Of a stretch of 64,000 nucleotides of DNA, positions 35,448 through 40,791 are shown one piece after another (within the stretch, counting starts at the first letter, position 1; every line of letters begins with the position of its first letter). Under the pieces are notes generated by a model. The model was given only the letters and a program-made list of their open reading frames with translations, was not told where the DNA came from and did not search any database. Position numbers and translations under genes: made by a program. The DNA is from Minisyncoccota bacterium (GTDB lineage Bacteria; Patescibacteriota; Minisyncoccia; Phycocordibacterales; UBA9973), in assembly GCA_041666045.1 (NCBI GenBank), contig JBAYHR010000004.1:4996-68995 (forward strand). Reading direction: 5' to 3'.

Positions 35448-36128
35448 TTATATAATATATTTACCATCTTTGTCATCACGAATAATTTTTCCTTTTTCCA
35501 TAGTAACAACCCTTTTACCAATTGAATCAATAACACCACGATTATGCGTAGTTAAAATAATCGTCGTGCCTAAATCATTTATTTTCTTTAAAATTTGAAT
35601 AACTTCATAAGTATTGACTGGGTCTAAATTGCCAGTTGGTTCATCGGCAATAATAAGCTCCGGTTGATTAATAATAGCACGCGCTATAGCAAGCCTTTGT
35701 TGTTCACCTCCAGACATTTGATGGGGAAAATGAGAAATTCTGTTCCCCAAATCAACAAGTTCTAAAACATGAGGCACATCTGTTGCTATTTCTTCTCTAG
35801 TTTTTCCTACAGCCTCCATTGCAAAAGCAATATTTTCATACGCTGTCTTATTAGAAAGTAATTTAAAATCTTGAAATACTGCGCCAATACGACGACGAAG
35901 CTTTGTTAAATCCTTACTTTTTAACTTATGCACATTAACAGATTCAAAAAAAACGCTTCCATTGCTTGGACGCTCATCTGCCATAATCATTTTAACAAGA
36001 GTTGTCTTGCCTGCGCCAGAATGCCCAACAATAGATACGAATTCACCAGCAGTTACCGTCAAGCTAACATCGTCCATCGCTATTGAATCTCTATTATAAA
36101 TTTTTGAAACATTATTAAAATAAATCAC
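35448..36128 (-). CDS. ftsE: Cell division ATP-binding protein FtsE
   Basis: Walker A GHSGAGKTTL, ABC signature LSGGEQQR, Walker B IIADEPT; GTG start after an AAGGA RBS. Confidence 0.9.
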   Translation of the reverse strand: MIYFNNVSKIYNRDSIAMDDVSLTVTAGEFVSIVGHSGAGKTTLVKMIMADERPSNGSVFFESVNVHKLKSKDLTKLRRRIGAVFQDFKLLSNKTAYENIAFAMEAVGKTREEIATDVPHVLELVDLGNRISHFPHQMSGGEQQRLAIARAIINQPELIIADEPTGNLDPVNTYEVIQILKKINDLGTTIILTTHNRGVIDSIGKRVVTMEKGKIIRDDKDGKYII

Positions 36129-36140
36129 ATCCTTAGTTTA

Positions 36141-36169
36141 TCACAAATTCCTTTCTGCTTCAATAAACA
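36141..36169 (-). repeat. 29-bp direct repeat TCACAAATTCCTTTCTGCTTCAATAAACA (copy at RT 3' end)
   Basis: Identical to 39904-39932 at the prfB 3' end; encodes FIEAERNL plus TGA on the minus strand. Confidence 0.85.
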
Positions 36170-37163
36170 TACTAAGTTTATACCCATTCCCATGCCCCAG
36201 CATCCCCAAATACGAAGCAATGGTATTAGGTTTTTGATTATTCTTTAAATTCCTAAACATCCTTTTCTTTGTGCTATTTCGTAATACTCTGTGTTTAGGA
36301 AAATGTACCCAGCCTAAGAAATCCACACCTGAATAAATAGTTTTAATAAAAACTTTATCTGGATGCATAGTTAATTTTAATTCATTTTCTAAAAACTCTT
36401 TCATTTGTTCTAAAATATTTTCCAAATAATTTTTGTCTTGCGATAATATAACAAAATCATCAGCGTATCTTATATAATATTTCACTTTCAATTTATGTTT
36501 TACAAATTGATCAAATTCATTCATATAGATATTTACAAGGAGTTGAGAAGTTAAATTACCCAAAGGCAAACCTTTTGAAAGTGACACAAACTCTGCCATG
36601 GCAGAGTTTGTGTCACTTGTATAAAAACTATCTATAATATTATCTAAAAGCCAAATGATATCTTTATCTTTTATAAATTTTACTAAAATACTTTTTAAAA
36701 TATTATGATCAATACTCGCAAAGAATTTTTTAATATCACATTTTAAAACCCAACAGGTTTTTGAATTATTTTTACTAACTTTGCGAAAATAATCCCTAAA
36801 CTTATTCATTCCCTTATGAGTACCTTTCCATTTACGGCAAGAATATGAATCACTGATAAATTTTGAATCAAAGAAAAAATACATTTTTTGATAAAGAGCG
36901 TGATGCAATATCCTGTCACAAACAATGGCTTTATGTATATCACGAGGTTTTGGATCAGAAATTTTAAAAGCATAATATCCTGAATGTTTATAATTTTTTG
37001 TTTTTAAATCATTGTGAAGTTTTAATAAATTTTCCATTAAATTTCTTTGCCAAATTTGAACATCTTTTTTATTTGATTTTTCGCTCCTAAAATTTTTCCA
37101 CGCCAAAAGTAAATTTTCCAAAGATATGATATCATTGTAACTATGAATAAAAGTTTTTATCAT
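36141..37163 (-). CDS. Diversity-generating retroelement reverse transcriptase
   Basis: RT motifs including YIRYADDFVIL (YxDD) and the DGR-specific LGxxxSQ (LPLGNLTSQ); 340 aa; the last 8 codons are shared with prfB. Confidence 0.85.
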   Translation of the reverse strand: MIKTFIHSYNDIISLENLLLAWKNFRSEKSNKKDVQIWQRNLMENLLKLHNDLKTKNYKHSGYYAFKISDPKPRDIHKAIVCDRILHHALYQKMYFFFDSKFISDSYSCRKWKGTHKGMNKFRDYFRKVSKNNSKTCWVLKCDIKKFFASIDHNILKSILVKFIKDKDIIWLLDNIIDSFYTSDTNSAMAEFVSLSKGLPLGNLTSQLLVNIYMNEFDQFVKHKLKVKYYIRYADDFVILSQDKNYLENILEQMKEFLENELKLTMHPDKVFIKTIYSGVDFLGWVHFPKHRVLRNSTKKRMFRNLKNNQKPNTIASYLGMLGHGNGYKLSMFIEAERNL

Positions 37164-37176
37164 TCTTCTGATATTA

Positions 37177-37187
37177 CCCCCCCCCCC
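37177..37187. repeat. C11 homopolymer in the 31-bp divergent RT/avd intergenic region
   Basis: Direct reading; striking in a ~30% GC genome. Confidence 0.8.
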
Positions 37188-37194
37188 GACGATT

Positions 37195-37545
37195 TTGCCA
37201 GTTATGCAAAGGGTAAAAACTGTGTATATCCTATGGTTTGAATATTATAAAAAATTAGAAAAAACACACAAATACACGCTTGGTCAAAAAATTGATAATT
37301 TATTTATAGAAATAATAGAAGCCGTATCAATTGCCACATTTTTAGATAAAACAGAAAAACAACCCTGGATAAGACTTGCAATACGGAAATTAGATACAAT
37401 AAAAATACTTTTAATGATACTTTGGGAAACAAAATCTCTTGATAATAAAAAATATATAAACATTTCCAAACCAATAGATGAAATAGGCAGAATGCTCGGT
37501 GGTTGGAATGGACAGCTTACAAAACAAAACTCTCCCAATAAATAG
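37195..37545 (+). CDS. avd: DGR accessory variability determinant (Avd, four-helix-bundle protein)
   Basis: 116 aa basic protein; C-terminal IDEIGRMLGGWNGQL matches the Avd/TIGR02436 EVGRILGSWI region; helical pattern. Confidence 0.7.
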   Translation: MPVMQRVKTVYILWFEYYKKLEKTHKYTLGQKIDNLFIEIIEAVSIATFLDKTEKQPWIRLAIRKLDTIKILLMILWETKSLDNKKYINISKPIDEIGRMLGGWNGQLTKQNSPNK

Positions 37546-37563
37546 GGAGAGAAATGAAAAGAG

Positions 37564-37696
37564 TTGCGAGAGAGAAAAACAAAGCGATTGTTGCCACTCC
37601 ACTTGTTGTCTAAATTCCCATTATTGTTGTTAAGCCACAACCCATCGTTATTGCATTCCACATTGAAAATCCTAGGATTGCCATCGCGATCAGTAT
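37564..37696 (-). repeat. DGR template repeat (TR)
   Basis: 133-bp direct repeat of the VR; differs from the VR only at positions that are A on the sense (minus) strand. Confidence 0.85.
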
Positions 37697-38005
37697 ATAT
37701 AAACTATCATCTATGCCACCACCCTTAGAATGCTCTCCGGGTTGAATTTTATTTAGTATCTAAAATACTTCAATAGTTTATACCAAGTAATTTCATTTTT
37801 TAATGAAGTGTCTGCACACATTACACTATTTTTAATCTTAATTAAAAATATTCTGAATGCATGGATACTGGATTCGGTAGTGAAAAACCTTAATCTTTCA
37901 CATATTCACCTACTACCATTTTTATTTTATCATACTTTTTTTAAAAAAATTCAAAGTTCAAAAATCAAAGAGTCAAAAGAATTCTAAATTGCAAAATCCT
38001 AAGTT

Positions 38006-39859
38006 CTAATTCTTGCGAGAGAGAAAAACAAAGCGATAGTTGCCACTCCACCTGTCGCCTAAATTCCCATCATAGCTGTCAAGCCACAACCCATCGCCAT
38101 AGCATTCCACACCGAAAATCCTAGGACCGCCATCGCGATCAGCAATAGAATCCATCGCAATTCTTAACCATTCTCCCATAAGTTGATCTTTATAATTAAG
38201 TCTAAGCTCTGGACCAACTTGTGGTGGACATAATTCTAAACCAAGTTTTTTTGCTTTATTGTATATTTCTTTTAAAGTAGCTCCATTTGGAAAACCGAGT
38301 TGTTCTATTGAAAATGAAACTAGATTAATTTTTTCTTTTTGTTTTAATGGCTCTATTTTATTTAACATATCTTGAGCATAAGAATATATTTTCATTCCTT
38401 GTACTTTTATTTCTTTTGTATATTCTTCTGATGTTTTAGTTGTAAGTTCTATATTTTTTCTAAATATTTTCTTTTCAGGAAATGATTCATATAAATATTC
38501 AATATTTTTTGGAATCTTTTTTGCAATTTCCGGATTCCATTCTCCTATATATGCTTTAGTATTTTCGTTTATTTCATCTTTATTATATGCAATCTGTTCT
38601 GAATTGCATTCAAAAATAATTGATGCATCTTCTTTGATATTTCTTTGTTTTCTTAATTCTAAAATTCGTGGATCTTTTTCATAACCAAAACTTGAAATAG
38701 AATCATTCATCTCATATAGAAAAACTAAATCTTGTTTGGTAAATTGTTCATTCTTTTCTTGTTTTTTAACAAGCTCAGTCACTTTTTTCATATCATTTGA
38801 TTTTTTATCAAATTTTTCTCCACCCGGCAAAGAATGATATTTTTCTTGTGCAGTATCTATCAAAACAGGTTCTAATTCTTGTCGGTGATTCACTCCACGC
38901 ACTTCTGCTATTTCATCTCCTTGCATTCTAATTGCAATTCTGGGCTCAGAATAATTACCAGCTGTTCCTTTAGTGTAATAAACATAAAAATCACCACCTT
39001 GCAGATGACTTGGCGCGCTTCCTTCGGCTGTACACCAGCCTGTGCCTTTGCCACGAAGTGCATTTTCTAAAATATGATAATCAGAACCTTGATCATATTT
39101 TACCCATTCACCTTTTAATGATTCACGATTTAATGTTCCAGCTGTTTCTATTTGAGCAAAAGTGTAAAGTTTTACAAAATCTTTCTTTTCTATCATCTTT
39201 TCTAAATCAGCTCTTTTTTGTTTTTGATCTTCCCCTGTGAATTCTTGGCTACCGATACCAGTAGTTAGCATTCTGTAAACAAAACCAAGCGCTTCGGAAT
39301 TTATTTCTGGAAATGGAGCAATTGTATAATCTGTGCGTTTACTATACTCTCCTTTTTCTTTATTAAGAGTTCCCATTTTAGACAAATTGCGAACAATAAA
39401 ATACCGAAACCAAGTCGGATATTCTGCATCGTTTTGTTTTAAGTAATCAAGCCAGCCATTTAATGATTTTACTTGAATTTCTCTTTTTTCTTTAGCAAGA
39501 TTTTCATAACCTTTTATTAGCTCATCATTATCTTCCAACTTCATTATTTCATTGCTTCTGCCTTGTTCTATTGCAATTCTTTTTTCTGATTCATAAAGAC
39601 CAACAGCGATTTTTGTAAGTGTATCTTCATCTTTAGTGTCTATGGCTAAATCTTTTATTATTTTATTTTTTAGTAATTCCCAACCTCGCTCGTCTTCCAC
39701 TATTTTATCAAGACGATCTAAATACGCTTCTATTCTTTCATCACGAGAATGCGGAGCAAATTTTCTTTCTGGATCTTTTTTAGCTTTTTCTACTGCTCGA
39801 ACAACCGGTTTTGAACCCGGTAAATCTGAATATTTTTGTTCAAGAAAATTCTTTTTCAT
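38006..39859 (-). CDS. DGR target protein with C-terminal variable (CLec/FGE-like) region
   Basis: 617 aa, no signal peptide; C-terminus ...GVECYGDGLWLDSYDGNLGDRWSGNYRFVFLSRKN is encoded by the VR. Confidence 0.8.
   Translation of the reverse strand: MKKNFLEQKYSDLPGSKPVVRAVEKAKKDPERKFAPHSRDERIEAYLDRLDKIVEDERGWELLKNKIIKDLAIDTKDEDTLTKIAVGLYESEKRIAIEQGRSNEIMKLEDNDELIKGYENLAKEKREIQVKSLNGWLDYLKQNDAEYPTWFRYFIVRNLSKMGTLNKEKGEYSKRTDYTIAPFPEINSEALGFVYRMLTTGIGSQEFTGEDQKQKRADLEKMIEKKDFVKLYTFAQIETAGTLNRESLKGEWVKYDQGSDYHILENALRGKGTGWCTAEGSAPSHLQGGDFYVYYTKGTAGNYSEPRIAIRMQGDEIAEVRGVNHRQELEPVLIDTAQEKYHSLPGGEKFDKKSNDMKKVTELVKKQEKNEQFTKQDLVFLYEMNDSISSFGYEKDPRILELRKQRNIKEDASIIFECNSEQIAYNKDEINENTKAYIGEWNPEIAKKIPKNIEYLYESFPEKKIFRKNIELTTKTSEEYTKEIKVQGMKIYSYAQDMLNKIEPLKQKEKINLVSFSIEQLGFPNGATLKEIYNKAKKLGLELCPPQVGPELRLNYKDQLMGEWLRIAMDSIADRDGGPRIFGVECYGDGLWLDSYDGNLGDRWSGNYRFVFLSRKN
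38013..38145 (-). repeat. DGR variable repeat (VR) at the 3' end of the target gene
   Basis: About 17 substitutions relative to the TR, all at TR adenines (13 A->G, 4 A->T in coding sense); the 3'-terminal ~30 nt are identical (IMH-like). Confidence 0.85.
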
Positions 39860-39903
39860 ATTTTTATATTACCATATAATTTATAAAAATCCAGCGTTTA
39901 AAA

Positions 39904-39932
39904 TCACAAATTCCTTTCTGCTTCAATAAACA
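39904..39932 (-). repeat. 29-bp direct repeat (copy at prfB 3' end)
   Basis: Identical to 36141-36169. Confidence 0.85.
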
Positions 39933-40791
39933 AATCCAAATCTCCTTCTAAAACTTCATCAACATTTGAAGTTTCAACTAGAGTCCTATGATCCTTAACC
40001 ATTTTATATGGATGAAGCACATAAGAACGAATTTGACTTCCCCATTCTATTTCTGTGCCTTTGGAAATCTTCATACTTTCTTCTATGCTCTTTTTTTCTT
40101 CTTGCGCCTTTTTAAAAATCTTTGCCCGGAGAATATTCATGGCTTGCTCACGATTTTGTTCCTGAGAACGTTCTCCTGAAGCGTGAACAGAAATATTTGT
40201 AGGAATATGTACTATGCGTACTGCTGTTTCCCTTTTATTTACATTTTGTCCGCCTGGTCCTCCAGCACGAGCAAATTCTATTTTTAAATCAGCTGGAGGT
40301 ATTATAAAATCTTTCTCTTCTAATTTTGAAAATTTTGGCAAAACTTCAATTAAAGAAAAAGAAGTATGCCTTAACTTTTTTGCATTAAAAGGAGAAATCC
40401 TAACCAAACGATGCACCCCACTTTCATTTTTCAAATTCCCATAAACCCCCTTACCATCTATTTCAAAAGAAACATTTCTATATCCGCCATGATCATTTTT
40501 GTGTTCGTGTATAAAAGAAATGTTCCAACCTTTTTTATCAGCATACTTCATATACATATCCAAAAGCATTTTAGAAAAATCTTCCGCGTCATCTCCTCCT
40601 GCGCCAGAAATTATAGTCAAAATAGCATTACCTTTATCATATTTACCAAAACCTTGTTTCTTATTTTTTAAATCTTCTAATTCTTTTAGAGTTGTCTGCG
40701 CTTTATTTTTATCAGCCCAAAAGTTAGGACTTAACATTTCTTCCTCCAATTCTTTTATTTTTTGTTCTATTTTATTTTTTTCTTCATCCAT
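39904..40791 (-). CDS. prfB: Peptide chain release factor 2 (short N-terminus, no programmed frameshift detected)
   Basis: SPF tripeptide, GGQ ([15 protein letters not shown]), [11 protein letters not shown]; 295 aa; a terminator lies directly upstream, so no frame-0 leader exon. Confidence 0.8.

Follow-up and report, generated by a model that had tools for sequence, protein, structure and literature searches.

The stretch of DNA analysed here (the window), 64,000 nucleotides (nt) from a Minisyncoccota bacterium, carries a diversity-generating retroelement (DGR) in which the reverse transcriptase (RT) gene and avd point away from each other on either side of a run of eleven cytosines (C11). 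On balance, we favour reading this run as a conserved slippage switch that would govern DGR mutagenesis through the reading frame of avd. The main parts of the locus, in window coordinates, are:

36141 to 37163, minus strand: DGR reverse transcriptase open reading frame (ORF) with an LGNLTSQ motif; 340 amino acids (aa); Pfam RVT_1, E=1e-24
37177 to 37187, no strand: simple-sequence tract, C11 on the plus and G11 on the minus strand; the only such run in the window
37195 to 37545, plus strand: body of avd, four-helix-bundle Avd domain; bAvd and DivGenRetAVD matches
37564 to 37693, minus strand: template repeat (TR); 130-nt alignment to the variable repeat
38013 to 38142, minus strand: variable repeat (VR), located at the target gene's 3' end; 130-nt alignment to the TR
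38006 to 39859, minus strand: DGR target ORF; 617 aa; no family match

The window contains an RT-clade motif, an adenine-specific TR/VR pair and Avd. In the RT translation, LGNLTSQ fits the clade motif [I/L]GxxxSQ and is invariant across homologs. More than 8000 RT homologs were found, mostly in Paceibacterota/Nomurabacteria, and together they form a very large family of Patescibacteria (the candidate phyla radiation, CPR). The avd ORF scores 43.7 bits against Pfam bAvd (PF22296), above the cutoff of 40. Against NCBIfam DivGenRetAVD (NF033474) it scores 60.8 bits, which is under the cutoff of 80, yet the alignment runs end to end. TR and VR are 88.5% identical over 130 nt, with 15/15 mismatches at TR adenines, and the VR ends 5 nt ahead of the target stop codon. 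It is virtually certain that the locus is a complete DGR of type B3.

A first-pass annotation of this DNA had assigned RT, TR and VR to the minus strand and avd to the plus strand, as was also found here, and had called the arrangement unusual. That description did not survive comparison with the catalogue. Architecture B3, TR-(avd)-RT, makes up 90% of the DGRs in the CPR set (Wu et al. 2018, PMC5758913), and the window conforms to it, with avd between TR and RT on the reversed strand. For a wider view, 80 genome loci and 80 metagenome loci with RT identities of 57-79% were fetched, of which 138 were non-redundant and had DNA upstream of the RT. An avd homolog lies directly upstream of the RT on the opposite strand in 138/138 of these loci. 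A divergent avd is the catalogued norm for CPR DGRs and not an oddity. Four loci came from viral contigs, and three of them were inspected; two distant RTs among these had a co-directional avd or none, had no tract, and are a small negative control.

The C11 is the sole C or G run of at least 7 nt in the window, which has 30% guanine plus cytosine (GC); the next is a single C6. Estimated from base composition, the chance expectation for a C11 in the window is about 2e-4, and its earlier description as an extreme outlier was apt. The element between RT and avd was tabulated in the 138 loci:

C run of 6-13, mode 9-10: 124/138 loci
(CT)n or (TC)n: 6/138 loci
(GCCA)n: 2/138 loci
(CA)n: 1/138 loci
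(GCCAGCC)6: 1/138 loci
degenerate C-rich remnant: 4/138 loci

Ten loci have replacement repeats, and their units, of 2, 4 or 7 nt, are in no case divisible by 3. By this comparison, the tract is conserved as a repeat rather than as a sequence, and we hold with high confidence that it is a conserved functional repeat.

Three short metagenomic contigs, L167, L168 and L170, whose RT proteins match P0054 and P0073 identically, stop right at the G/C tract or within it. Such contig ends suggest that assemblies break there through length heterogeneity or sequencing difficulty. Among contigs with identical RT proteins, four assemblies (L162-L165) all have G10, and the rest are too short or broken at the tract.

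The position of the tract relative to avd depends on where avd begins. The codon at 37195 is TTG, and not the ATG reported in the first-pass annotation; the first in-frame ATG of avd is at 37204. In relatives, the codon homologous to TTG 37195 is TTG, TTA, CTA, CTG, CTT, ATC, ATA or GTC, and this mixture of Leu, Ile and Val codons is the pattern of a translated residue, not of a start codon. No -10 was found ahead of 37195 or 37204 in the window. Upstream of these codons, the avd frame is open through the tract in nearly all loci, usually without an intervening start codon. In a sub-class whose gap is longer, the stretch from the tract to the codon homologous to 37195 encodes a conserved peptide, [ST]..SQPKL; its variation lies at wobble positions, and its last Leu uses all six Leu codons. 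Judged by this signature, the codons between the tract and the annotated avd start are evolving as coding sequence, and the annotated start at TTG 37195 or ATG 37204 is probably internal. The 31-nt spacer, formerly taken as non-coding, is probably coding as well, in an avd frame that can be traced back to an antisense ATG in RT codon 7.

Codon usage in the RT gene points to the same antisense ATG. RT codon 7 (His) is CAT in 108 loci and CAC in 3. A synonymous-site test was restricted to the 45 loci with a GC fraction of at least 0.44, in which His7 is CAT in 41 and CAC in 2, against a background of 53% T-ending codons for His elsewhere in the same RT genes. Likewise, Asp11 is GAT in 29 and GAC in 1 (background 55%), and Ile12 is ATC in 36/45, with no constraint on the wobble bases of Phe5, Tyr9 and codons 8 and 10. 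Read on the avd strand, the constrained bases are T-16 G-15 n T-13 A-12 T-11 n n T-8, followed by 7 nt and the ATG. This antisense pattern, TGnTAnnnT-N7-ATG, is that of an extended -10 with a start codon at the expected transcription start. On the evidence of these codon biases, both the ATG and the -10 are under synonymous-site selection inside the RT gene. The corresponding elements of the window are:

37127 to 37135, plus strand: putative extended -10 for avd, TGaTATCAT (TG at 37127-8, TATCAT at 37130-5), antisense in RT codons 10-13; from wobble constraint
37143 to 37145, plus strand: putative avd start ATG, complementary to RT His7 CAT and following the -10 hexamer by 7 nt

The frame from the antisense ATG is open to the tract in 107/107 loci, and the other two frames are open in 11/107 and 19/107. 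The genome itself offers a suitable mode of expression. Shine-Dalgarno (SD)-like motifs occur at 2/48 long ORFs of the window (60 ORFs of at least 120 aa), and -10-like hexamers that begin 12-14 nt and end 6-8 nt ahead of the ATG form a sharp peak among many ORFs; leaderless mRNAs seem to be usual in this Paceibacterota genome. Because the wobble constraint, the open leader, the leaderless-rich genome and the coding signature upstream of the annotated start agree, we infer that avd is most likely leaderless from ATG 37143, overlaps the RT gene head to head over its first seven codons, and has its tract read as Pro codons. That the tract lies within a translated avd leader is a likely part of this reading.

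With the tract inside the avd reading frame, repeat length would therefore set the frame of avd. The C11 starts 34 nt after ATG 37143, and in its present form it gives the following ORF:

37143 to 37241, plus strand: ORF from ATG 37143 with the present C11; 32 codons, MNKSFYHSSDITPPPDDFASYAKGKNCVYPMV; one nt out of the avd frame

Translated in silico, C10 or C13 instead gives a whole Avd of 133/134 aa, MNKSFYHSSDITPPP(P)TILPVMQRVK.... The frame state relative to the antisense ATG was scored in 107 loci:

in frame: 20/107 loci; ORFs typically 130-146 aa, median 134.5
one nucleotide too many, the state of the window: 56/107 loci
two nucleotides too many: 31/107 loci

A repeat unit that is not a multiple of 3 within the ORF or promoter of the controlled gene is typical of contingency loci, and the tract has this property if the ORF is placed as proposed. 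Repeat-number polymorphism that alters the frame was found between close relatives in three pairs, each with one side in frame and one out. L108 (C10, in frame) and L048 (C11, out of frame) have identical 70-nt flanks on both sides of the tract and are 94-98% identical over 300 nt. In the second pair, L113 with (GCCA)9 is in frame (142 aa) and L076 with (GCCA)10 is out of frame; in the third, L094 with C8 is in frame, and L103 and L106 with C9 are out of frame. Adenine-specific TR/VR mismatches amount to 97% in loci that are in frame, 96% in those with one nucleotide too many, and 93% in those with two too many. The out-of-frame loci are not dead elements, because their TR/VR differences stay adenine-specific. 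Loss of the repeat would be expected to lock a locus in frame; among such loci, L029, L043 and L173 are in frame from the conserved ATG, and L156 and L160 are not. L173, which is labelled viral (IMG/VR contig IMGVR_UViG_3300020195_001307), has a divergent avd, no repeat (about 2440-2500 of the contig), and an avd ORF of 126 aa; its nearest relatives have (CT)n there.

A slippage switch of Avd could operate as follows. Transcription of avd would begin from the extended -10 inside the RT gene and yield a leaderless mRNA with ATG 37143 at its very start. Translation would proceed from MNKSFYHSSDIT-PPP through the tract and onward into the Avd four-helix bundle. A tract of C10 or C13 would allow the 133/134-aa Avd to be made, and the assembled C11 would lead to a stop after 32 codons. 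Slipped-strand mispairing at replication would change the number of units and turn Avd on or off stochastically, and mutagenic retrohoming would be turned on or off with it in subpopulations. Avd toggling is expected to toggle retrohoming because DGR reverse transcription needs the RT-Avd complex; this requirement is established for cDNA synthesis in the BPP-1 DGR, as reported by Handa et al. Some leaky Avd expression may come in addition from slippage of RNA polymerase or of the ribosome on the C run. We favour the switch because homo-, di-, tetra- and heptanucleotide repeats interchange and because relatives differ by one unit. Taken as a whole, heritable switching as the main mode is somewhat probable, with the transcription start, the use of ATG 37143 and switching itself all predicted from sequence.

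The tract also adjoins the start of the RT gene, on the other strand, where a possible promoter was found:

37171 to 37176, minus strand: -10-like hexamer TAATAT, adjoining the G tract, with the RT ATG 7 nt downstream; possible promoter for a leaderless RT mRNA

A TANNNT hexamer directly follows the tract in 46/124 loci, compared with a background of 3.9%, and the distance from tract to RT ATG is 13 nt (hexamer plus 7 nt) in 32-36 loci, about a quarter. The RT gene may also be leaderless, starting at ATG 37163, in which case the transcription starts of avd and RT would face each other 20 bp apart. If the proposed starts are right, the avd and RT ORFs overlap head to head by 21 bp (37143-37163) and their promoters converge, from which transcriptional interference between the two genes is predicted. 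Between the tract and the RT ATG there is an SD-like stretch of purines, which was considered as a ribosome-binding site and rejected, SD-like motifs being as rare in the window as stated above (2/48 ORFs only).

A role of the tract as a spacer within the RT promoter was also considered and rejected. The only conserved upstream hexamer, which served as the reference, is the antisense of avd codons Leu-Pro; the distance between it and the -10-like hexamer peaks at 16 and 18 nt and is almost never 17, and in one sub-class it is 31-34 nt. No conserved -35 for the RT across the tract was found among the relatives. Nor was a conserved RT promoter found inside avd, in which codons 1-42 have no constrained wobble sites. 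With no conserved -35 and no preferred 17-nt spacing, there is no support for tract length acting on the RT promoter. The first-pass annotation had proposed that slippage in the homopolymer could toggle RT, avd or both. What stands of this is a slippage substrate positioned to control expression, given a conserved tract that varies in length and three one-unit pairs in and out of frame; an effect through RT-promoter spacing lacks support.

At the other end of avd, a hairpin lies directly 3' of the TR:

37520 to 37551, minus strand: hairpin CTCTCCC-N8-GGGAGAG, then TTTTGTTTTG; from a terminator scan

The hairpin and its trailing TTTTGTTTT overlap the stop codon and the last codons of avd. Perfect-stem hairpins with a T-rich tail occur near the avd stop, mostly overlapping it, in at least 53/128 loci. 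Their stems vary and pairing is kept (CTCTCCC/GGGAGAG, CTCCGCA/TGCGGAG, ACCCCGC/GCGGGGT and others, in loci within L001-L161). The structure probably acts on the TR RNA as an intrinsic terminator, serves as a stem-loop for Avd binding, or does both. A TR-RT transcript had been thought to have to read antisense through avd. The covarying, terminator-like hairpin makes such read-through dispensable, and the RT gene also has its own -10-like hexamer 7 nt ahead of its ATG.

Several observations weigh against a slippage switch of Avd. Only 20/107 loci are in frame and 56 have one nucleotide too many, a state kept across whole sub-clades, and this skew fits programmed recoding or mutational bias as well as it fits random switching. 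The four assemblies L162-L165, with one RT protein and from one species, are all G10. Out-of-frame loci also include L156 and L160, which have degenerate tracts, and several with a short C6-C7. Both the promoter and the leaderless start are deduced from constraints on the sequence, and part of the antisense ATG signal goes with a conserved RT His. At the annotated avd start, TTG is over-represented (about 45% of loci), and internal initiation at 37195 may occur where TTG or ATG is present. The skewed frames and the uniform G10 leave room for a constitutive bypass, which may take place by RNA-polymerase slippage or by +1 slippage of tRNA-Pro. As a full explanation, programmed recoding would keep the tract in the avd ORF and supply low, constitutive Avd by RNA-polymerase or +1 tRNA-Pro (CCC-C) slippage, and 'one nucleotide too many' would be the normal working configuration, as in prfB or dnaX. 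CCC-C is a shift-prone site, the 56 loci (the window among them) need the same shift of -1 nt or +1 ribosomal, and one sub-clade holds C9 in the one-too-many state in at least 9 loci, with none in the frame-2 state. The active-looking TR/VR pairs of out-of-frame loci and the G10 of the one species would follow as well. However, a programmed +1 frameshift or transcriptional slippage implies a single frame relation across homologs, and three were found: besides the 56 loci, 31 would have to shift the other way and 20 require no shift. Moreover, (CT)n, (GCCA)n and (GCCAGCC)n are incapable of tRNA-Pro slippage, and units of 4 and 7 nt are poor substrates for RNA-polymerase slippage but classic ones for DNA slippage. 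A stop or rare codon that could stimulate +1 frameshifting is absent after the tract, and the one-unit differences between close relatives exist already in the DNA. On these grounds we consider recoding unlikely.

The tract could also be non-coding and lie in a bidirectional promoter, with avd starting from TTG 37195 or ATG 37204 and tract length tuning promoter spacing, as in the phase variation of hifA/hifB by (TA)n or of porA by poly-G. This would account for the RT -10-like hexamer that adjoins the tract in 46/124 loci, for TTG as the commonest codon at the annotated avd start, and for Avd family models that begin at the annotated start residue. Such a promoter is quite unlikely, given the lack of a conserved -35, the hexamer spacing of 16 and 18 nt and almost never 17, and the lack of a -10 ahead of 37195/37204 although genes here start 6-8 nt after a -10. 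Furthermore, many loci have TTA, CTA or GTC at the annotated start, the codons upstream of it have a coding signature, and the antisense ATG and its -10 are under synonymous-site selection. A structural element without switching, whether a poly-Pro or low-complexity linker of Avd or a G-quadruplex or H-DNA in the 5' region of the RT gene, would make the out-of-frame assemblies a matter of decay or errors. Every variant is G-rich on the RT strand and the 13-nt distance from tract to RT ATG is fixed in many loci, as such an element would have it; yet a Pro linker in AT-rich genomes would mix Pro codons instead of using pure CCC, and (CT)n and (CA)n form no G-quadruplexes. In addition, 81% of loci are out of frame, yet the RT and avd ORFs are intact and the TR/VR differences adenine-specific, and a purely structural role is improbable. 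Finally, a sequencing or assembly artefact would fit the short contigs that break at the tract. It is excluded for practical purposes because the tract recurs at the matching position in 124/138 non-redundant loci from many studies and assemblers; a second assembly of the window genome also has an identical C11. We retain the slippage switch of Avd as the favoured reading.

Other features of the locus and of the window are less directly connected with the tract. The target ORF has a -10-like TAATAT 6 nt ahead of its ATG, and a consensus scan gave one further site:

37692 to 37719, minus strand: promoter-like site GTGGCA-16-TATACT at the TR 5' edge; from the consensus scan alone

An Rfam search of 35900-40100 returned chance-level microRNA (miRNA) and small nucleolar RNA matches only. 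Inside the RT ORF there is a 36-nt perfect palindrome, GTGACACAAACTCTGCCATGGCAGAGTTTGTGTCAC (window 36578-36622), for which the Rfam miRNA matches are likewise at chance level only. Its site is a length-variable insertion hotspot just ahead of the GLPLGNLTSQ motif, and homologs have other inserts there, often encoding SAMAE, YAMAE or SAIAE. Elsewhere in the window, ORFs of 210 aa (about 50993, minus strand) and 185 aa (about 59964, minus strand) have an identical 30-nt upstream sequence, which indicates a duplicated gene or segment.

As far as we know, little has been established about the restraint and timing of DGR mutagenesis, and no study of DGR control in CPR bacteria was found in the literature searched. 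If the switch is real, a conserved repeat that sets the avd frame would offer a simple and testable principle of control. The gate would be a form of second-order bet-hedging, in which a mutable repeat controls a targeted hypermutator. As a tentative extension, which we rate just short of probable, most DGRs of CPR/Patescibacteria would have a hypermutable repeat gate, in a leaderless avd leader not recognised before, that is off in most cells and stochastically on in a subpopulation. The avd gene model would also be corrected, with a start inside the RT gene on the other strand, and the absence of a plausible start signal at annotated CPR avd genes would be explained. The predicted peptide MNKSFYHSSDITPPPTILPVMQR and its homologs can be searched for in metaproteomes. 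In metagenome-assembled genomes, a DGR is not necessarily dead when its avd is called 'out-of-frame' or truncated.

Compared with the known DGR types, the window has the same order and strands as B3 (PMC5758913), namely target-VR, TR, reversed avd and RT, with no architectural difference. In the BPP-1 DGR (avd-TR-brt), an Avd-binding stem-loop lies just after the TR (bioRxiv 10.1101/2023.10.23.563531). The locus described here resembles BPP-1 in having RT, Avd and a TR RNA with adenine-specific mutagenesis, and the stem-loop 3' of its TR is similar to the Avd-binding one. Unlike in BPP-1, whose avd is co-directional and contributes its 3' end to the DGR RNA, avd is reversed here, the stem-loop has a terminator-like U-tract, and avd has a proposed N-terminal leader that contains the repeat.

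Repeats between or within genes control expression in several other systems. In Haemophilus influenzae, the divergent promoters of hifA/hifB contain (TA)n that sets the spacing of -35 and -10. The present tract also lies between divergent genes and could affect both, but it shows no conserved spacing and would lie inside one ORF. Programmed recoding at slippery runs is known from the prfB +1 frameshift, from transcriptional slippage in dnaX and in insertion sequence (IS) elements, and from tRNA-Pro slippage at CCC-C. As in these cases, an ORF contains a run of identical bases beyond which it continues in another frame, and most loci need the same +1 shift. In contrast to them, all three frame states occur here, repeats other than homopolymers can substitute, and there is no stimulatory stop codon or SD element.

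Contingency loci are the closest parallel to a switch of Avd. Translational phase variation is known from the poly-G of Neisseria pilC, from (CAAT)n in lic1 and (AGCC)n in mod of Haemophilus, and from the poly-G genes of Campylobacter. As at those loci, a repeat whose unit is not a multiple of 3 follows just after the proposed start codon, homopolymers are 8-13 nt long, the tetranucleotide alternatives include the AGCC/GCCA unit, and related strains are one unit apart in frame. The poly-C of mga in Group A Streptococcus is a further example of simple-sequence contingency (PMC10330708). The gated gene here differs from those of contingency loci, being an accessory factor of targeted hypermutation and not a surface or restriction-modification gene. 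The tract is also conserved over a very broad bacterial radiation, unlike strain-specific contingency loci, and its switching is predicted. The literature searched, with Paul et al. 2017 outside its coverage, contained nothing that connects a repeat tract, a frameshift or an overlapping leaderless start with DGRs or Avd. Both the architecture and phase variation by simple-sequence repeats are known; what would be new is a conserved repeat-based frame switch that gates a DGR.
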